From an uncultured Pseudomonadota bacterium (lineage in GTDB: Bacteria > Babelota > Babeliae > Babelales > RVW-14): DNA of 64,000 nt. Under the pieces are notes generated by a model. The model was not told where the DNA came from. It was given only the letters and a program-made list of their open reading frames with translations, and made no database searches. Shown in pieces: positions 8,897 through 24,565 of this stretch. The first letter of the stretch is position 1. Every line of letters begins with the position of its first letter. The translations under genes and the position numbers were made by a program. Location of the stretch: NCBI GenBank assembly GCA_964446935.1, contig CAYUQI010000006.1, positions 218-64,217 on the forward strand, given 5' to 3'.

Positions 8897-10354
8897 TTAA
8901 GACGTTAAAATTTCTTGTTCGATAATAGTTAACTTTTGAGCAAGGGCAGGGTCTGTCTCGATCAATTGTTCTACTTTGCTGATGGCATGGATTACGGTCG
9001 AATGATTTCGACCTCCAATGTAGCTACCGATTGCTTGCAGAGAGCAATAACTCATTTTTTTCATCATATAAAAGGCAACTTGCCGTACGATGGCAATATC
9101 CTGATGACGACTTTTTGATTTTATATCATTAGCCGCGATATCGTAATGTTTTGCGACGATTTTAAGTATAGTGTCGAGCATAGCTCCTTCCCGTTTGGGT
9201 TGTGTATTGAGATTGAGAAGCACGCGTTTGGCCATTTCTAAGGTTATTTTTTGATTGGTTAATGCTGCAAAGGCACTTACTCTGACCAGCGCCCCTTCTA
9301 ATTCTCTGATATTGGATATAACACGAGAAGCGATAAAATCGGCAACCTCATCTGGCAACAGTAATGCATGCATTTCTGCTTTTTTCTTTAAAATTGCGAT
9401 TTTTGTCTCAGTGTCTGGTGTTTGAATGTCAGCAACGAGTCCCCATTCCATACGTGATTTGAGTCTGCTTTGCAAACCATGAATCTCTTTTGGGAATGTG
9501 TCGCTGGAAAGAATAATTTGCTTTTGTTGTTCATACAAGATGTTAAAAATATGAAAAAAAATTTCTTGTGTTTGTTCTTTGTTTGAAAGGAATTGAATAT
9601 CATCAAAGAGCATAACATCGATTTTTTGATATTTCATTCGGAACATTGCGGAACGATTAAAACGAATTGAATTGATGAATTCATTAATAAAATTATCTGT
9701 TGTTTCATAACGAATGCACAGTTCTGGGGATCGACTTGTTATCTCATTACCAATAGCATGCAGAAGATGAGTTTTTCCGAGTCCTGTTCCACCATAAATA
9801 AACAAGGGATTGTAGATTTTACCAACATTCTCGCAAATGGCCCATGAAGCTGTATGTGCTAATGAATTGTTGGGACCAACAACAAAATTTTCAAAACGGT
9901 AGTTTCGATTAATACAGGCGCCTGTTTTTTCTTTGGCGCGTTTAGGATCAATTGCTGGTAGTGACTGCCCTATATTAACCGGTGTTGGATAGTCCTGCAT
10001 TGGTGATGCAGAGTCCGGAGTGCTTGCCACGTGTATGTGTAATTCCTGCTCGATTTCGTGGTCTACGGATGCTGGAATAATGTTTCGTGGTGATGATGTT
10101 GTAGATGGGGTATTTGGAATAAAGGAAAGTTTGAAAATTGGTGCATGCAAAAGGCGTGCAAGGTGCGTTTTCAAAAGGTCTGTGTAATGATCTTGTATCC
10201 ATCGGCTAACAAATTGATTAGGAACTTTGAGAGTAATGGTATTGGTTGCGGGGTCCCAGGTATCCAAACTAACCGCCTTAAACCATGTTTCAACCACTTG
10301 GCTTCCTGCCTCTTCTTTAATAATTTTTAGGAAATCCTCCCAAATAAGTTGCAC
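8897..10354 (-). CDS. dnaA: chromosomal replication initiator DnaA
   Basis: AAA+ Walker A GGTGLGKTHLL, sensor motifs, and a C-terminal DNA-binding domain (HSTVIHA). GTG start is preceded by AAAGAGG. Confidence 0.95.
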   Translation of the reverse strand: MQLIWEDFLKIIKEEAGSQVVETWFKAVSLDTWDPATNTITLKVPNQFVSRWIQDHYTDLLKTHLARLLHAPIFKLSFIPNTPSTTSSPRNIIPASVDHEIEQELHIHVASTPDSASPMQDYPTPVNIGQSLPAIDPKRAKEKTGACINRNYRFENFVVGPNNSLAHTASWAICENVGKIYNPLFIYGGTGLGKTHLLHAIGNEITSRSPELCIRYETTDNFINEFINSIRFNRSAMFRMKYQKIDVMLFDDIQFLSNKEQTQEIFFHIFNILYEQQKQIILSSDTFPKEIHGLQSRLKSRMEWGLVADIQTPDTETKIAILKKKAEMHALLLPDEVADFIASRVISNIRELEGALVRVSAFAALTNQKITLEMAKRVLLNLNTQPKREGAMLDTILKIVAKHYDIAANDIKSKSRHQDIAIVRQVAFYMMKKMSYCSLQAIGSYIGGRNHSTVIHAISKVEQLIETDPALAQKLTIIEQEILTS

Positions 10355-16963: not shown

Positions 16964-16980
16964 AAAGTGAAGTCAAAGAA

Positions 16981-17011
16981 AAAGGGGAGGGCTTAAAAAG
17001 CTCTCCCCTTT
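16981..17011. terminator. bidirectional intrinsic terminator
   Basis: ~12-bp stem AAAGGGGAGGGC / GCTCTCCCCTTT (one G-U) with loop TTAAAAA. An A-rich left flank gives a U-tail for the minus-strand transcript. Confidence 0.75.
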
Positions 17012-17020
17012 AAAATCTAT

Positions 17021-17155
17021 TTAGCACTTACAACCTTTTTCATCACAAGGGCATTTTTTAGTGCATTTGCAACAGCCATCCTTTTTGCATTTGCAGTTGG
17101 GACAATTGCAGTGGCATTTGGATTGGCAGCAACATGAGCCGCATTTTTTTTCCAT
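17021..17155 (-). CDS. 44-aa Cys-rich metallothionein-like peptide (not in ORF track)
   Basis: Translation is MEKKCGSCCCQSKCHCNCPNCKCKKDGCCKCTKKCPCDEKGCKC: 16 Cys of 44, CxC/CC motifs, no aromatic residues. AAAGGAGA lies 5 nt upstream of the ATG and the terminator at 16981-17011 is immediately downstream. Confidence 0.65.
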   Translation of the reverse strand: MEKKCGSCCCQSKCHCNCPNCKCKKDGCCKCTKKCPCDEKGCKC

Positions 17156-17180
17156 GTACGTCTCCTTTGTTTAATGATTA

Positions 17181-17345
17181 TTATTTTTTCCATGCTATGT
17201 CATCGCGTGAATCGTAACGCATTATAGTATAAGGCTTTTCTTTTTTATAGCGTGGATACTTTGGTTTTTCCTTCCCACACGAGCTTATACACAATGTTAT
17301 AATGAATAGTAATCCAATCATGTACGCATATTTCAAGAATTTCAT
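17181..17345 (-). CDS. small lipoprotein (54 aa)
   Basis: The internal ATG at 17345 is preceded by AAGGGGGG. The signal plus lipobox is MKFLKYAYMIGLLFIITLCISSC. It lies 25 nt upstream of the Cys-rich ORF on the same strand. Confidence 0.5.
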   Translation of the reverse strand: MKFLKYAYMIGLLFIITLCISSCGKEKPKYPRYKKEKPYTIMRYDSRDDIAWKK

Positions 17346-17452
17346 AACATTCCCCCCTTTGCCCCTTGCCAACGTTATGATACTGCGGCACTTTGCTTTT
17401 GCAAGTACCATTAAAAATCTAGTTATTGAAAGAATATCTTGTTAAAGTTCTG

Positions 17453-18205
17453 TTATAAATTTGTTATCATCGTTTGAATTGCAACGTCATTTATTTTCTT
17501 TTCTTCCGTCGAAATTGGTTCAAAAAAACGTCGAATATCAAGATTCTGAAGTAAATTATCTTCGTTGCCTAGTCGTCCGGTTACATACACGTCTGGAAGG
17601 TTAAGATGTGGTTTATCAATAGCTAGAAATTCTCCCTGTGGTATGTAGATATTCTTTGGATTTGTAAGGATGACGAGGGTCAAAGGATTGACCTTTCTGT
17701 CAGTTGGAATAGGACTTTCCTTTACTTCCCAGTAATCAAGCTTCTTTTTATCTTTTTTAAGTTCGCATACATAAAGAGTAACTGGTTCGTCAGATTTGTA
17801 TTCGCGGTGAGAAAATGTATTCCCCTTTATGTTGACGAGATTGATGTGAGCGGTTACCGCAATGTATATTTTGGGTGAAGCATGTCGCAGAGGAAAAGAT
17901 ATGAGCCCATCGATGTCTGAAATGTCTATATAACCGCCATAAATAGCAAAAAACCCGCTCAATGCTGGTAGCACGTTTGTGCGAAGTGAATTTTTAACTA
18001 TTTTTTTGCTGATCGAAGCTGGTGTTTTTTCATCCATTTTAGCTATTTTAGTTGCCAGGCTTTGGCTTTTTGCTTCTTGTTCAACATCTGATACAACATT
18101 TGATGGGACATGTTTAAGGAACAAAATGATTCGATTATCTGCACCTAAATATAGGAAAAACAGGGAAAAAAATACACATTGTGCAATATAAACCCTAGCT
18201 TTCAT
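17453..18205 (-). CDS. hypothetical secreted protein
   Basis: 250-aa ORF with a hydrophobic N-terminus. No family recognised. Confidence 0.5.
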   Translation of the reverse strand: MKARVYIAQCVFFSLFFLYLGADNRIILFLKHVPSNVVSDVEQEAKSQSLATKIAKMDEKTPASISKKIVKNSLRTNVLPALSGFFAIYGGYIDISDIDGLISFPLRHASPKIYIAVTAHINLVNIKGNTFSHREYKSDEPVTLYVCELKKDKKKLDYWEVKESPIPTDRKVNPLTLVILTNPKNIYIPQGEFLAIDKPHLNLPDVYVTGRLGNEDNLLQNLDIRRFFEPISTEEKKINDVAIQTMITNL

Positions 18206-18281: not shown

Positions 18282-18968
18282 GTGATTAAAATCTATTACT
18301 TGAAAATTGTTCAGGATGGGGTTGTTATGAAAATACGTCAAAAGCCACCGGAAAAGGTATGGGCTGAATTCCAAGAAGAGGTTCATCCTAGCAAAGAGCA
18401 GCTTGCGCAGTTTAAACGATATGCAGCATATCTGCTTGAATGTAATGAATTCTTTAATATAACAGCCATAACTGAGCTATCAGGTGTTGTTCGTCAGCAT
18501 TTTCATGATTCACTGATGATGGCTTCGTTTATGGATATGTCATCTATCACAACAATTGCTGACATTGGGACCGGTGGGGGCTTTCCAGGTATTCCACTTA
18601 AAATTATGTATCCACATCTGAATGTTGTTTTGCTTGAGGTCAATAAAAAGAAACAGGCTTTTTTGGCTGATGTTATAAAAATTCTTGGTATGAACAATAT
18701 TGAGATATGTGATCTTGATTGGCGTACTTTTTTGCGTACGACGACACATAAGATTGATGTTTTTGTAACACGTGCAGCACTAGATGATTTAGAGTTGATT
18801 CGAATGTTTAAACCTGCTTGTCCTTACAACAACGCAACATTAGTGTATTGGGCATCAAAAGAATGGGAACCGCATCAAAAAACAAAACCGTTTATTTCAC
18901 GAATAGAAGGTTATAAACTAGGTCACAAAGATAGGCGTCTGGTGTTTATGCATATGCCCAAAACGTAA
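18282..18968 (+). CDS. rsmG: 16S rRNA (guanine527-N7)-methyltransferase RsmG/GidB
   Basis: SAM-binding motif DIGTGGGFPGIPLKI. The true start may be the ATG at 18327 (MKIRQK...). Confidence 0.85.
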   Translation: MIKIYYLKIVQDGVVMKIRQKPPEKVWAEFQEEVHPSKEQLAQFKRYAAYLLECNEFFNITAITELSGVVRQHFHDSLMMASFMDMSSITTIADIGTGGGFPGIPLKIMYPHLNVVLLEVNKKKQAFLADVIKILGMNNIEICDLDWRTFLRTTTHKIDVFVTRAALDDLELIRMFKPACPYNNATLVYWASKEWEPHQKTKPFISRIEGYKLGHKDRRLVFMHMPKT

Positions 18969-19635: not shown

Positions 19636-19803
19636 AACTGTAAAACGATGTTTTTGGTGGTTTTTTTAAAAAATGTATTAAAAAGATCTTTGTATTATGG
19701 GAGCTAAATTCTTTAATTCTTTATTTTGAAGCATTAAAGATGCTATATTACTAATAGGAATTTATAGCCTGGGGTAGTTGGTATGTATAAAGAAGGAGAA
19801 GTT

Positions 19804-21372
19804 ATGAAGCTTTCATGGAAACTATTAGCCTTGCTCAGTGGACTTTGTGTGTTTTCATCGGTGATGGCCCAAGATGCGTATCAGTTATCAGCATGGCAGA
19901 AATTTAAGGCAGCATTAAAGATAGGAACGCACGGCATGGGTGCTGAAGAATATGCCGAATATGAACGAAGAAAAGAAGCGGCAAAGGCAACAATGACTGC
20001 AGAACAGTATGCTGCACAAAAGAAAGACCTTAAAGGTGGATTAATAGAACAAACGCATGGTTGGTATTCAGAAATCAAACAACAAAGAGAAGTTGAAAAA
20101 GCTAAAGTAAAGCAAGAAAAAGAAGCTGCAAAGGTTAAGGAGAAACAAGAAAAGGAAGCAGCTAAGGTTCGTGAAAAAACAGCAAAAGAACTAGAAAAGA
20201 AGTCTGAGAGTTTAGATAAGAAGATTAATGACTTGCAAAAGAAGTCCAAGACAGGACAATTAACCGCTGCAGAAAAGGCTACACTTTCTACTTCAATGCA
20301 AGAGCGTGCTCGAATACAAGATGCTCGCATTGAGGCTAATCCAGAAGAATTTAAAAAGATGCGAAATGTATTAACAGAAAAAATAGAAGCACTAAAAGCT
20401 GGAATTGCAACAATGGAAGAAAAAGGATTGAATGCTTCTCCAATGCTGGCAGAAAAACGAAAGAAACTTGAAGACCTAAAAGACCAAATAAATCAAACGA
20501 TGACACTGCAACAAAAGAGAGAGGAAGCTTATAAAAATGCAGAAATGAGTACGCAAGATCGTATTAAAAATGAGATTGCTGCCGCTCAAAAACATGGAGA
20601 ATCTCCTGCGCAAATTGCAAAAAGGAAAGAAGAACTTGCTGCGTATGAACAATTTCTGAAGAATCAGGCGGATAGTGTTTTTAAACAAAAATATGGAATA
20701 ACGCAACTTCCCCCTACTCAGCAAGAGCAAGCGGCAGCCTTTATAAAAGAAAAACAAGCAACAGCTGGAGCGGGTACGGCTCGCCCTTCGTTAGAGGATA
20801 TTGGACACAGGCCTGCTGAAGAGTATGTTACATTGCCCGCTGCACAGTCTTCTGCGCAAACAGAAACGCAACGGCCCACCTTAGCTGATATCGGACATAA
20901 GACCGCCGACGATTACATTCATTTGCCTACGAAGCAAGAATTGGAACAAAAGCAACAAACTGCTGAACAACCTTCTACGTGGAAGGCTTCTCAAAAACCG
21001 AGTGGCAAGCAAACAGATACTTTTATTGGGCAACAAAGAACAACCACTCCATCTACATGGAAGCCTGCCGAAAAACCGAGCAGCAAACCAGCGGGTACTT
21101 TTGTTGGGCAGCAAAGAGTAACGACGCCATATAAATCATTTGATGATCCTGGTGCTCGAGAAGCTGTTATAGCGGCACAGGAACGTGTTTCTAGAGGGGT
21201 TCAAGAGCAGGCAAAGTTTCAACGACCTGTTGCGGAGCCAGCAGCTCAACCGGCTGCACCTGTTGAACAAAGACCAGCCCAGTCGTTGGTTCCACCACCA
21301 CAAATGGATGACCCGGGAGCTAGAGATATCCAATATCAGGAAAAATTACGTGAAATCCTGAGATCTAAATAA
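19804..21372 (+). CDS. secreted repeat-rich coiled-coil protein
   Basis: The ATG at 19804 follows AAGGAGAAG, and a signal peptide is present. There are several internal repeats: KQEKEAAKV x2-3, RP(S/T)L(E/A)DIGH(R/K)xA(E/D)(E/D)Y x2, PSTWK...GTF(I/V)GQQR(T/V)TTP x2, and DDPGAR x2. Confidence 0.6.
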   Translation: MKLSWKLLALLSGLCVFSSVMAQDAYQLSAWQKFKAALKIGTHGMGAEEYAEYERRKEAAKATMTAEQYAAQKKDLKGGLIEQTHGWYSEIKQQREVEKAKVKQEKEAAKVKEKQEKEAAKVREKTAKELEKKSESLDKKINDLQKKSKTGQLTAAEKATLSTSMQERARIQDARIEANPEEFKKMRNVLTEKIEALKAGIATMEEKGLNASPMLAEKRKKLEDLKDQINQTMTLQQKREEAYKNAEMSTQDRIKNEIAAAQKHGESPAQIAKRKEELAAYEQFLKNQADSVFKQKYGITQLPPTQQEQAAAFIKEKQATAGAGTARPSLEDIGHRPAEEYVTLPAAQSSAQTETQRPTLADIGHKTADDYIHLPTKQELEQKQQTAEQPSTWKASQKPSGKQTDTFIGQQRTTTPSTWKPAEKPSSKPAGTFVGQQRVTTPYKSFDDPGAREAVIAAQERVSRGVQEQAKFQRPVAEPAAQPAAPVEQRPAQSLVPPPQMDDPGARDIQYQEKLREILRSK

Positions 21373-21443: not shown

Positions 21444-22655
21444 TTATTGTTCAATTAATGCTTCGACAGGATTAAGCATTGATGCTTTTCGTGCCGGATA
21501 GTAACCAAAAAAGAGTCCAATCATGATTGATGAAGTCAATGAGATGACTATTGCTTTTTGAGAAATGAAAATTGGCCACCCAAGAATTAAGCCAACGATC
21601 TCTGATGTGCTTACTCCTAGTGCAACACCAACCAATCCACCAATGAGGCAGATAGTAATGGCTTCAAGAATAAATTGCGTCAAAATACTTTGTGTTGTAG
21701 CGCCCAATGCCATACGAATACCAATTTCTTTTGTGCGCTCGGTGACAGTGACAAGCATGATGTTCATAATGCCAATACCGCCAACAACCAGTGAGATTGA
21801 TGCAATAATCAGCAAAAGAATGTTAAGAATTGCTGATGCGGCATCAGAAGCCTTTAAAGCATCATCTTGAGTAAAGATGGTAAAATCATCATCGTCGTCT
21901 TCAGCCAAACGATGTTTTTGTCGCAGAAGTGCTTTGATATGACGAGCTGTTGTAGCCATTTGATCACTTTGATACGTTGATATAACGAAAGCATTGTAAT
22001 TGTTTTTGCCAATCAATTTGCGTTGTACGGTAGTGACAGGAAGAAAAATAATATCGTCCATATCACGACCATCGGGTGATTGCCCTTTTTCTTCAAGAAC
22101 CCCAACGACCTTGAATGGTATTTTTTTTATACGGATGATGGCATCAACGGGATCCTTATCTCCAAATAGTTCTTTGACCACCTTTGGGCCCAGCAATGCT
22201 ACTTTGTTTCCTGTGCGTATATCTTGTGCTGTGAAATTTTCACCTTTTGTTACTTTGATTTGTCGAATTTCTAAATAATCCTCGTTTACTCCAAACACGG
22301 TCGTGTGCCAGTTGGCTCCTTCTGTGACTGCCTTGCCTTGATATTGAATACCTGGTGAAAACAGATGAACTCCCTCACATTCATCCAAAATAGCTTGAGC
22401 ATCAGCCGGTTTGAGGGTAAAAAAAGTTCCGCCTCTTTGGGTGACGGTTTTGGGGGATGCTGCAAGAACAACTACGAAATTAGTTCCGATTTTTTCGATT
22501 TCTTTGCGAACTTTGTATTTGGCTCCCTCACCAATCGACAAGACAGCAATAATAGCAATAACACCAATGATGATGCCCAATGTGGTTAACAAAGATCGCA
22601 TTTTGTGATGCCGTAATGAACGAAGGGCGGAGCGCAATAATAATGTAAATGTCAT
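21444..22655 (-). CDS. MacB/FtsX-type ABC transporter permease (locus 1)
   Basis: An N-terminal TM segment, a large periplasmic domain, then a C-terminal FtsX 3-TM bundle (TERTKEIGIRMALGA motif). It overlaps the ATPase gene by 4 nt. Confidence 0.85.
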   Translation of the reverse strand: MTFTLLLRSALRSLRHHKMRSLLTTLGIIIGVIAIIAVLSIGEGAKYKVRKEIEKIGTNFVVVLAASPKTVTQRGGTFFTLKPADAQAILDECEGVHLFSPGIQYQGKAVTEGANWHTTVFGVNEDYLEIRQIKVTKGENFTAQDIRTGNKVALLGPKVVKELFGDKDPVDAIIRIKKIPFKVVGVLEEKGQSPDGRDMDDIIFLPVTTVQRKLIGKNNYNAFVISTYQSDQMATTARHIKALLRQKHRLAEDDDDDFTIFTQDDALKASDAASAILNILLLIIASISLVVGGIGIMNIMLVTVTERTKEIGIRMALGATTQSILTQFILEAITICLIGGLVGVALGVSTSEIVGLILGWPIFISQKAIVISLTSSIMIGLFFGYYPARKASMLNPVEALIEQ

Positions 22656-23338
22656 TGTTGTACTCGATCCTTAGTAATTTTACCATCTATCAATTCAATA
22701 ACACGTTTTGTTTTGGCAGCAACATCAGGTTCGTGAGTAACGATAATGATGGTAACCTTTTGTTGGTCATTAAGTTGTTTGAACAAATCAAGGATGACGT
22801 TACCTGTTTCAGTATCTAAATTACCGGTAGGCTCGTCAGCAAGAATGATGCGCGGATTGTTGACTAATGATCGAGCAATTGCCACGCGTTGCTGTTGTCC
22901 CCCAGAAAGTTGATAAGGGTAATGGTTTTTACGTTCACCAAGTTTAACAATATCCAAGAAGTGTGCTGCTTTCTCTCGTGCATCTGCTTCTTTTGCCCCA
23001 GCATAGAGCAAAGGTAATGCAACGTTATCAATAGCTTTCAGGTCGGCGAGCAGATGAAATTTTTGAAAGACAAAACCGATTTTTTGATTTCTGATACGAG
23101 CTAATTCATCTCTGCTTGCTTGTGCAGCATCGGTTCCATCCAAAAAATATGTTCCTGATGTTGGGGTATCCAGACAACCGAGCAGATGCATGAGTGTTGA
23201 TTTACCTGAACCAGAAGATCCTGTAATTGCTACAAATTCTCCGGTGTCGATTTCGACGTTAACGCCTTTAAGAGCGGTAACTTCAGTTTCGCCCATTGTA
23301 TAAATTTTAACTAAATTTTTTGCTTCTAGGAGCTTCAT
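22652..23338 (-). CDS. MacB/LolD-type ABC ATP-binding protein (locus 1)
   Basis: Walker [10 protein letters not shown], signature [15 protein letters not shown], Walker [12 protein letters not shown]. Confidence 0.9.
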
Positions 23339-23347
23339 GAACAGCCT

Positions 23348-24565
23348 TTATTTACTGCCAATGCCACCAGGACGGCCAAAGGCACCTGTCAGCAATATAT
23401 TTTCTTGTGCGTCGACATCAAGATCAACAATGATATTTGTTTGTGGGGAAATTCCGTTGCTTATTTGCGTATATTTACCATCGTTGATACCAAGTTTTAC
23501 TTCGATTTGTTTGATTGTCTTTGGATCTTCCAAGACCCACAAATAATCTTTTGTCTTGAGTGCTTTTGATGATGAAGCTCCCGCTTTAGGGCCTGCCTGA
23601 AGTTTATAAACCCTTAACCCATACTTTTTAGCTGCTTCATCAATTTGGAAAGCACTGATACGGAAAGCTTTGTTTGATACACTTAGTGCTTGGTCAGCAC
23701 TGGCGACTTTGATATCAACATTCGTTGTCATGCCGGGACGTAAGCGTAGCTCTGGGTTGGCAACATTAAGAACTGCCGCATAGGTGACGACATTATCAAC
23801 AATTTTTGCTTGATATTGAATGCGTTTAACGGTGGCCGTAAATCGTTCTTTGGGAAATGCATCAACGGCAAAACTAGCTTCTTGTCCTTCTTTGACCATG
23901 CCAATGTCAGCTTCATCAACGTCGATGTGTGCTTCCATACAATGCAAGTCTTTTGCTATTTCAAATAATATGGTGGCATCGAACTGAGAGGTGACCATTT
24001 GGCCCAAGTTAACTTTTTTTGCGATAACAATACCGTCATCAGGCGATTTGATAAAAAGGTTGTTGTAGGTTTGAGTTTCTAGTTCTAAGTCTGCTTTGGT
24101 TTGAGCGACTTTTGATACAGCTACCTCATAGTCTTGTGTGTACTGTTCAAAAAGATTTTTAGAGAGTTGCCCCGATTTGTATAGTGCTGTTTGTCGTTTG
24201 TAAAATTGTTTTTGATATTTAAGCCTTTCGATATTTTCTGTCAAAAGAGCTTTTTGTTTTTTGATAGCTGTGTCACCTATCCCATTATCAATGATGGTTA
24301 AAATCTGATCCTTTTTTACAATATCATTATCTTCGGCAAGTATTTGTACTATTCTTCCAACAACGAGTGAGCCCACCGAGATTTGATCAAGAGCTTTGAG
24401 GTTGCCTGTTGCGGTGACAAATTGTACGAGCGGACGCGGTTGTGGGTTTTCTGTTTTGAAAGGACGTTGATGTTGACGTTTGCATGTTTGGTAATAGAAA
24501 TAAAAAAGGGTTGAAGCACCTGCAAGGGCAAGCACAAGCCCCATGGCAAATTTGGAGTTTTTCAT
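23348..24565 (-). CDS. HlyD/MacA-family periplasmic adaptor (locus 1)
   Basis: An N-terminal TM anchor, coiled-coil hairpin region and barrel-sandwich motifs. It is the first gene of an adaptor-ATPase-permease operon. Confidence 0.8.
   Translation of the reverse strand: MKNSKFAMGLVLALAGASTLFYFYYQTCKRQHQRPFKTENPQPRPLVQFVTATGNLKALDQISVGSLVVGRIVQILAEDNDIVKKDQILTIIDNGIGDTAIKKQKALLTENIERLKYQKQFYKRQTALYKSGQLSKNLFEQYTQDYEVAVSKVAQTKADLELETQTYNNLFIKSPDDGIVIAKKVNLGQMVTSQFDATILFEIAKDLHCMEAHIDVDEADIGMVKEGQEASFAVDAFPKERFTATVKRIQYQAKIVDNVVTYAAVLNVANPELRLRPGMTTNVDIKVASADQALSVSNKAFRISAFQIDEAAKKYGLRVYKLQAGPKAGASSSKALKTKDYLWVLEDPKTIKQIEVKLGINDGKYTQISNGISPQTNIIVDLDVDAQENILLTGAFGRPGGIGSK

Follow-up and report, generated by a model that had tools for sequence, protein, structure and literature searches.

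A 64,000-nt stretch of contig CAYUQI010000006.1 (assembly GCA_964446935.1; referred to below as the window), from an uncultured bacterium placed by GTDB in the Babelota, contains a small gene whose 44-residue product is more than one-third cysteine. This gene is almost certainly real, protein-coding, and routinely missed by annotation, and selection acts on the positions and the spacing of its cysteines. Its product appears to belong to no described sequence family and would represent a new family of a known kind of protein. From its composition, its pattern of conservation, and its predicted location, we propose that the peptide probably belongs to a new bacterial family of cytoplasmic metal-thiolate peptides of the metallothionein type.

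The cysteine-rich gene and its conservation

The gene occupies positions 17021..17155 of the minus strand, running from ATG to TAA over 44 codons plus the stop codon, and the translation of 17155..17021 (-) is MEKKCGSCCCQSKCHCNCPNCKCKKDGCCKCTKKCPCDEKGCKC. The 44 residues include 16 Cys (36.4%), 11 Lys, and one His; Phe, Trp, and Tyr are absent, as are Leu, Ile, Val, and Ala, and nothing aliphatic follows Met1. The cysteines form six CxC, three CC, and two CxxC motifs, and the polar N-terminus, MEKKCGS, shows no hydrophobic stretch. An original prediction, made from the letters of the window, had described a 44-codon, 36%-Cys open reading frame (ORF) on this strand with Cys arranged as CxC, CC, and CxxC, and its coordinates, its Cys and His counts, its many Lys, and its lack of aromatic residues were all reproduced here. 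Given the base composition, 43 sense codons should include about 1.4 for Cys; the probability of at least 16 is 1.3e-13, or about 1.6e-8 after multiplication by the 128,000 possible starts. When the window is translated in six frames, seven Cys or fewer occur in 99.9% of 44-aa windows. A chance origin of the Cys richness is excluded.

Relatives were found by synteny. The anchor for all homologues was a 250-aa Dependentiae-specific protein with no assigned function, encoded at 17453..18205 on the minus strand, and small ORFs were scanned in the DNA downstream of its homologue at 45 loci. Its relatives lie at about 45 loci and have 35-59% identity. Where the record names an organism, they are mostly metagenome-assembled genomes (MAGs) labeled as candidate division TM6, Dependentiae, or Babeliales; several carry merely the label "bacterium" or "uncultured Pseudomonadota bacterium". 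On this basis, the window, too, is very probably of Dependentiae origin. A Cys-rich ORF of 30-52 aa with 26-40% Cys lies at the matching position downstream of the 250-aa gene in about 20 loci of Dependentiae (TM6/Babeliales), which come from MAGs and metagenomes. These ORFs fall into two main types. Type A, the subfamily of the window, is usually placed after an orthologue of a small lipoprotein gene and comprises the window peptide and those of L021 (identical DNA), L050 (52 aa), L024 (49 aa), L018 (=L038; 51 aa), L003 (38 aa), and L047 (43 aa). Type B peptides are shorter (30-35 aa), hold 11-12 Cys with two CPKCG motifs, and are encoded directly after the 250-aa gene (L004, L006, L008, L009, L026, L029-L031, L039, and L044). 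A third variant, of 49 aa, occurs in L032.

Over six type A lineages, whose 250-aa neighbors are 41-59% identical, 11 Cys, one His, and three Lys do not vary, and the core reads CHCxCxxCxC-x(3-5)-CxC-x(2-4)-CxC-x(3-4)-CKC. Among type B peptides, ten Cys are invariant and two more Cys positions are each altered in one of five sequences. The changes at the DNA level are specific to one frame. By the Nei-Gojobori method, the type A core has a proportion of synonymous differences (pS) of 0.83 and of nonsynonymous differences (pN) of 0.23 in the Cys frame, a ratio of 0.28, compared with ratios of 0.92 and 0.93 in the other frames; over the different counts, the ratio ranges from 0.25 to 0.28 in the Cys frame versus 0.72 to 0.95 in the other two. 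For the window and L050 alone, pS is 0.68 and pN is 0.095. In type B, pN/pS is 0.08 in the Cys frame versus 2.07 and 6.25 in the others. The invariant Cys columns switch freely between TGT and TGC. Conservation in close relatives had been named as a check on the gene, and the result is an ORF with 11 Cys and one His invariant over the six type A lineages and with substitutions that are mostly synonymous in the Cys frame only.

Translation signals are conserved as well. Every family member has AGGAG or GGAG 5-8 nt ahead of its ATG, and downstream of most there is a hairpin with a T-run after it. In the window, the Shine-Dalgarno sequence (SD) AAAGGAGA lies at 17168..17161 on the minus strand (17161..17168), with a 5-nt spacer to the ATG; the strong SD that had been predicted from the window is thus accounted for.

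The opposite reading, that the Cys frame is a mere by-product of another ORF or of nothing functional, draws on annotation. A 58-aa ORF in another frame overlaps the gene (17017..17193, minus strand), and automatic callers preferred it: in the public Logan assemblies SRR12489246 and SRR12489245, which cover the same locus, the 58-aa ORF was called and the Cys-rich ORF was not. Moreover, the Cys-rich peptide is present in none of the protein databases that we searched. A TGY codon read one base on becomes GCN or GTN, and the neighboring frame therefore stays open and is longer. However, the 58-aa frame is not conserved. It is interrupted by stop codons close to its 5' end in L024 and L003, the ATG with which it starts in the window is missing in L018, and its pN/pS is 0.92 in type A and near 0.9-2 overall, against 0.08-0.28 for the Cys frame, which has invariant Cys and its own conserved SD. 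This frame-specific pattern of substitution effectively refutes the reading, to which we assign next to no probability.

The database searches were uniformly empty. Of ten family peptides looked up as exact matches in about 15 billion public proteins, none was present (0/10); a word-index protein search with the window peptide yielded no candidates, and a family profile run against 5.8 billion proteins returned nothing at E ≤ 1. The protein searches are empty because the family peptides were never called as genes. An exhaustive phmmer search of 1.84 billion representatives gave two long repetitive proteins only, which we judged spurious, and a degenerate DNA pattern for the CHCxCxxCxC core gave 13 matches in viral contigs, all of them off-target low-complexity frames. 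It had been predicted that routine annotation would miss the gene, and this held: the longer frame was called instead, and the exact peptide is absent from the 15 billion proteins. The family is a concrete case of a conserved gene that is systematically mis-annotated, with a longer overlapping frame preferred and the true product missing from a collection of this size.

A predicted metal-thiolate peptide

The composition is shared across the family: 26-40% Cys, no aromatic residues, 0-3 aliphatic residues, and three to six CxC motifs, with 0-3 Leu, Ile, Val, or Met residues after Met1 in each member. Set against the usual definition of metallothioneins, the peptides are smaller than 10 kDa (44 aa in the window and 30-52 aa in the family), their Cys content is high, conserved, and arranged in CxC, CC, and CxxC motifs, and they contain few hydrophobic and no aromatic residues. 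Type A and type B members have neither a signal peptide nor a lipobox.

Profile comparisons gave a different result. No family member scanned matched a Pfam or NCBIfam family at E ≤ 10. The SmtA/BmtA family, PF02069, had no match at E ≤ 10 in the window peptide and five signal-less relatives, with the SmtA control at 4.5e-21, and the eukaryotic metallothionein families of Pfam (PF00131, PF11403, PF02067, and others) did not match the peptide. The controls human MT2A, SmtA, yeast Cup1, and Drosophila MtnA matched their own families at 1e-13 to 1e-25; two further controls, from Neurospora and lobster, gave no match, so Pfam coverage of true metallothioneins is incomplete. When searched against the PDB, the peptide itself gave weak PqqB matches only (phmmer). 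The type A profile retrieved just two PDB sequences at E < 10, 1QJL (E=5) and 1DFT (E=6.1), both of which are beta domains of animal metallothioneins; the matches are not significant, and are suggestive of a similarity of pattern. The AlphaFold2 (AF2) model of the single peptide was uninformative, with a mean predicted local distance difference test score (pLDDT) of 70 and a predicted template modeling score (pTM) of 0.42; no SmtA-like zinc-finger fold was seen in it, and Foldseek gave only meaningless matches to the PDB (E > 5). The original description of the peptide as metallothionein-like is therefore upheld for composition, pattern, and conservation, whereas no known metallothionein sequence family matches in profile comparison; the likeness is one of composition and pattern, not of membership.

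We propose that the 11 invariant Cys thiolates and the invariant His of the core would wrap a single polynuclear metal-thiolate cluster. By analogy with the alpha domain of vertebrate metallothioneins, which is M4Cys11, and with the Zn4Cys9His2 cluster of SmtA, it would hold about four Zn(II) or Cd(II) ions, or more Cu(I). The five additional N-terminal Cys of the window peptide would raise this capacity, and its 11 Lys would offset the negative charge of the cluster. Lacking a signal peptide and any hydrophobic core residues, the peptide would be expected to fold only around metal ions, in the reducing cytoplasm. Its invariant Cys are odd in number, which speaks against a fold in which all of them are paired in disulfides. 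We infer the cytoplasmic location, the metal binding, the stoichiometry, and the physiological role alike.

Physiologically, the peptide may buffer or sequester zinc or copper (or cadmium), and possibly oxidants, in a bacterium whose protist host can poison it with zinc and copper. Dependentiae are obligate intracellular parasites of protists (PMC6561590, PMC4776705), and intracellular bacteria are poisoned with zinc by amoebae and, more generally, with copper by phagocytes (bioRxiv 10.1101/356949, PMC7858047, PMC3841717). MymT of M. tuberculosis, a small metallothionein in a copper regulon that includes a lipoprotein gene, provides a precedent in an intracellular pathogen (PMC3944814, PMC10612145). 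In such a niche, a thiolate sponge in the cytoplasm would presumably be useful and dispensable in lineages with other hosts, and this dispensability would fit the patchy distribution of the gene.

Several observations weigh against this role. No metal transporter or metal sensor is encoded within about 10 kb of the peptide gene, and its neighbors are housekeeping genes (dnaA, rsmG, phosphoribosyltransferases [PRTases], and peptidase M3). The comparisons with Pfam, NCBIfam, and the PDB gave no significant metallothionein match, and compositional resemblance is not homology. Cys-rich lipoproteins stand beside the peptide or replace it in several relatives, which could mean a function in the envelope or a system that spans two compartments. 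The gene is also dispensable, being absent from L022 and L046 and having an ATA start and a Cys-to-Tyr change in L048, which fits an accessory metallothionein without proving one. The structural model of the peptide adds no information, and the metal-binding role is a prediction from sequence.

A small, basic, Cys-rich peptide might also bind only one or two structural zinc ions and act on nucleic acids or on a protein partner, as a zinc-knuckle micro-protein or a protamine-like peptide; its task would then be regulation or condensation of the nucleoid, not the buffering of metal. The net charge of the family (Lys/Arg minus Asp/Glu), +7 to +11, is in keeping with this, as are the two CPKCG motifs of type B, which follow the classical zinc-knuckle pattern (the window peptide has CPNC), and the CPxCG micro-proteins of haloarchaea are a precedent. 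However, 11-16 Cys in 30-52 residues far exceed the needs of one or two Zn(Cys)4 sites, the peptides offer no hydrophobic or aromatic side chains for a finger core or for contact with bases, and the Lys count would suit the neutralization of a thiolate cluster. We consider this explanation unlikely and retain the metal-thiolate peptide as the preferred one.

The locus, its distribution, and alternative roles

Upstream of the peptide gene and on the same strand lies a gene for a 54-aa small lipoprotein (17181..17345, minus strand), with the lipobox ISS|C and a conserved R-x-D-x-R motif. Its ORF, read from 17345 to 17181, ends 25 nt upstream of the peptide gene, exactly as predicted. In an alignment of nine orthologues, the lipobox Cys, R43, D45, and R47 are invariant, and the lipoprotein is also present at many Dependentiae loci that have no Cys-rich peptide. 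The two genes are probably co-transcribed. A promoter-like TTGCAA-16-TATCAT at 17377..17404 (minus strand), upstream of the lipoprotein gene, is a candidate for the start of such a transcript, albeit a weak one, with three sites of this kind in the region compared with 2.5 expected by chance. At L005, L007, and L010, Lys/Arg-rich lipoproteins of 66-82 aa replace the small lipoprotein at this position.

Beyond the peptide gene, an intrinsic-terminator-like hairpin with a T-rich tail extends over 16974..17011 (minus strand). The hairpin proper is 31 nt long (17011..16981) and begins 9 nt past the stop codon of the peptide, in line with the terminator that had been predicted within 10 nt; as measured here, its stem consists of 9+4 bp with one A.C mismatch, followed by a T-rich run. 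Folded in a 71-nt context, it has a free energy (dG) of -21.6 kcal/mol (z = -3.4), and it was not flagged by a simple terminator scan. It lies between the peptide gene and a convergent PRTase gene and is probably a bidirectional terminator. In L021, where the DNA is otherwise about 98% identical, the stem-loop at 16981-17011 of the window is exactly reverse-complemented (at about 980-1010; GGGGAGAGCTTTTTAAGCCCTCCCC versus GGGGAGGGCTTAAAAAGCTCTCCCC), and the exact inversion preserves the structure. An Rfam scan of the region found no RNA family.

The 250-aa protein that precedes the lipoprotein gene begins with a signal or transmembrane helix and includes a beta-rich domain (AF2 pLDDT 77), and its invariant residues include R107, H108, and H133. 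It has no Pfam or NCBIfam match, and its AF2 model has no fold match in the PDB. In a tree of this protein, the type B loci are monophyletic, while type A is scattered over a clade that includes gene-less lineages, which suggests old vertical inheritance with losses. The peptide gene is absent altogether at the L022 and L046 loci and is therefore accessory, not essential. At L048:2498-2629 (=L049), the type A orthologue reads ATA where the start ATG is expected and Tyr where the first core Cys would be. The frame is otherwise intact, with ten Cys, and the changes reflect either early decay or a non-canonical start. Aligned by hhalign, type A and type B gave a probability of 29% over one aligned column.

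The position of the gene bears on whether its translation, rather than its product, might matter. In mycobacteria, short, unannotated, Cys-rich polycysteine ORFs act as Cys-responsive attenuators (bioRxiv 10.1101/834739), so a leader ORF that senses the supply of Cys-tRNA and thereby attenuates downstream genes has a mycobacterial precedent; a cysteine or sulfur reserve may be considered alongside it. Consistent with a leader, the peptide gene of L003, L032, L047, and L048 is followed on its own strand by one for a Cys-rich lipoprotein or other protein with a signal peptide. In the window, in L018, L024, and L050, and at type B loci, however, the peptide gene is the last of its unit and is followed by a terminator and then by a convergent gene; being terminal in its transcription unit, it has nothing to attenuate. 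Nor would a leader need the His, the Lys, and the exact Cys spacing, all of which are under purifying selection at the protein level. We judge a leader or a reserve to be very unlikely.

The same neighborhoods argue against the precursor of a ribosomally synthesized and post-translationally modified peptide (RiPP), such as one of the SCIFF/ranthipeptide type. The peptide is small and Cys-rich, as are some precursors modified by radical S-adenosylmethionine (radical-SAM) enzymes. But the neighbors checked (13.3-19.6, 7.6-13.4, and 21.4-25.5 kb of the window) include no radical-SAM or other maturase, no protease, and no dedicated exporter, the flanking genes in relatives encode a PRTase, a uracil phosphoribosyltransferase (UPRTase), and peptidase M3, no NCBIfam precursor family matched, and the peptide is conserved over its whole length, with no division into leader and core. 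A RiPP precursor is highly improbable on these grounds.

A second set of Cys-rich proteins is encoded at this locus in relatives. They have a signal peptide and mostly a lipobox followed by CC (for example, ...SLGACCKKSCETPC...), with 7-14 Cys in 49-104 aa, and were found at L046:2548-2766, L047:2694-2894, L048:2688-2903, L032:3847-4020, L015:4708-4866 (=L036:2975-3133), L019:3583-3732, and L003:4821-5135. No such gene is present in the window.

It is from these relatives that the most serious rival to the metal-thiolate reading arises, namely, that the peptide and the adjacent lipoprotein are components of a disulfide cross-linked or metal-bridged envelope comparable to that built with chlamydial OmcA and OmcB. 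The peptide gene lies 25 nt after a conserved lipoprotein gene, the upstream 250-aa protein carries a signal or transmembrane helix, and lipobox-CC lipoproteins with 7-14 Cys occupy the locus in L015/L036, L019, L032, L046, L047, and L048, in some cases directly after the peptide gene. On the other side, no type A or type B peptide has a signal peptide or lipobox of its own, the locus lacks a lipoprotein gene in type B genomes, the number of invariant Cys is odd (11), the Cys-rich lipoproteins do not match the Pfam family of chlamydial OmcA, and the window has no Cys-rich lipoprotein. By analogy with the chlamydial proteins, an envelope role would be conceivable, but we hold it to be improbable.

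A broader arrangement, which we likewise regard as rather doubtful, would unite the peptide, the small lipoprotein, the OmcA-like lipoproteins of relatives, and the secreted 250-aa protein in an undescribed Dependentiae-specific module. Such a module might be a relay or store of metal from the cytoplasm to the envelope, or a chlamydia-like, cysteine cross-linked envelope system tied to the transition to an infectious stage. Within such a module, the peptide would do more than serve as a metallothionein by itself.

In 12 relatives (L004, L006, L008, L009, L026, L031, L039, L044, L050, L018, L003, and L024), the SD of the peptide gene is preceded, at a distance of 4-10 nt, by the conserved motif (A)TTAACCC(W)T(W)A. 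In L039 and L044, it is kept despite an insertion that parts the gene from the upstream coding sequence, and a motif of this type also precedes the Cys-rich lipoprotein gene of L048 (about 2665-2685). It is missing upstream of the window's own peptide gene and is not enriched in the window as a whole (11 occurrences versus 6.7 expected). The motif could be a promoter element or an operator and, if a module of the kind described above exists, it could be the operator of a shared regulator.

In the wider window, the genes within about 10 kb encode peptidase M3, UPRTase, PRTase, RsmG, DnaA, a tetratricopeptide repeat (TPR) protein, a MacB/HlyD-type ATP-binding cassette (ABC) exporter, and a nitroreductase, or have no assigned function. 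With dnaA (8897-10354, minus strand) and rsmG (gidB; 18282-18968, plus strand) less than 10 kb apart, the window lies close to the origin of chromosomal replication. The GC skew is positive over nearly all of the window, and two 2-kb bins are marginally negative. A 529-aa protein encoded at 19783-21372 (plus strand) combines a signal peptide with long repeats rich in Lys and Glu (EKEAAKVKEKQEKEAAKVREK...) and a C-terminal half rich in Pro, Gln, and Thr; it has no family in the precomputed Pfam annotation of public assemblies and is possibly secreted or located at the surface. It is followed by the MacB-type ABC exporter operon (21444-24565, minus strand), which encodes an FtsX/MacB_PCD permease, an ABC ATPase, and an HlyD-family adaptor.

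Comparison with known systems

To our knowledge, SmtA/BmtA and MymT are the only established families of bacterial metallothioneins. If the proposed function is correct, this conserved family, with a Cys density like that of animal metallothioneins, would add a third bacterial kind and clearly exemplify convergent evolution. It would also offer a first entry point to how the Dependentiae handle metals; apart from a few isolates, this phylum is known largely from metagenomes.

Two of the systems considered above resemble the family in part. Like OmcA, the peptide is small, rich in Cys, and encoded by an obligate intracellular bacterium, and the lipoproteins of its relatives share the design of a lipobox, CC, and a Cys-rich tail. 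Unlike OmcA, the window peptide has no signal peptide or lipobox for export, and even the lipoprotein versions have no match to the OmcA family of Pfam. The mycobacterial polycysteine leaders differ in that the window ORF does not lie upstream of regulated genes and in that its non-Cys residues and its spacing are under selection.

MymT is likewise a small metallothionein of an intracellular bacterium. Its Cys fraction is much lower than that of the Dependentiae peptides, and it is copper-regulated by RicR; we compared the family with MymT by description only. The motif of MymT is unlike those of other bacterial metallothioneins (PMC10612145). Its regulon also holds a small lipoprotein gene, lpqS (PMC3944814), and the likeness here is that of a lipoprotein gene near a peptide gene.

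SmtA and BmtA (PF02069) are small and bacterial and have no export signal, and a zinc-thiolate(-imidazole) cluster, as found in them, is predicted for the Dependentiae peptides. The Zn4Cys9His2 cluster of SmtA has 11 ligands, which is close to the 11 Cys and one His of the type A core. However, SmtA has 16% Cys, three His, two aromatic residues, further hydrophobic residues, and a GATA-type zinc-finger fold (PMC10612145), none of which is a feature of the Dependentiae peptides. The His ligands and the aromatic or hydrophobic core of an SmtA-type fold are lacking in the window peptide, which has a single His and no aromatic or aliphatic side chains. More generally, the known bacterial metallothioneins are well folded, with the GATA-type zinc-finger fold, and His and hydrophobic residues are common in them (PMC10612145, PMC11705764). 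Surveys describe bacterial and environmental candidates as His-rich and as having far fewer Cys than animal metallothioneins (PMC11705764, PMC10612145). In one metagenome survey, the environmental candidate prokaryotic metallothioneins averaged 10.6% Cys and 13.3% His, and the bacterial ones were more His-rich than the others (PMC11705764). Given these low-Cys, His-rich averages, the Dependentiae family is of a different kind.

In composition, the family resembles animal metallothioneins (the vertebrate alpha and beta domains, PF00131, and those of echinoderms, insects, and crustaceans). Like the peptides described here, they consist of small domains with about one-third Cys in CxC, CC, and CxxC motifs (32.8% in human MT2A), have Lys beside Cys, and contain no aromatic and almost no aliphatic residues. 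The 11 Cys of the family core also equal the ligand count of the M4Cys11 alpha domain. It had been suggested from the window that the peptide looks more like eukaryotic metallothioneins rich in CxC and CKC than like SmtA/BmtA, and the comparison agrees: its composition fits the animal type and differs from that of SmtA, and PF02069 does not match it. The family differs from animal metallothioneins in being bacterial, in consisting of a single domain of 30-52 aa, in the one invariant His of type A, and in having no significant profile match. Its similarity to them is compositional and very probably convergent.

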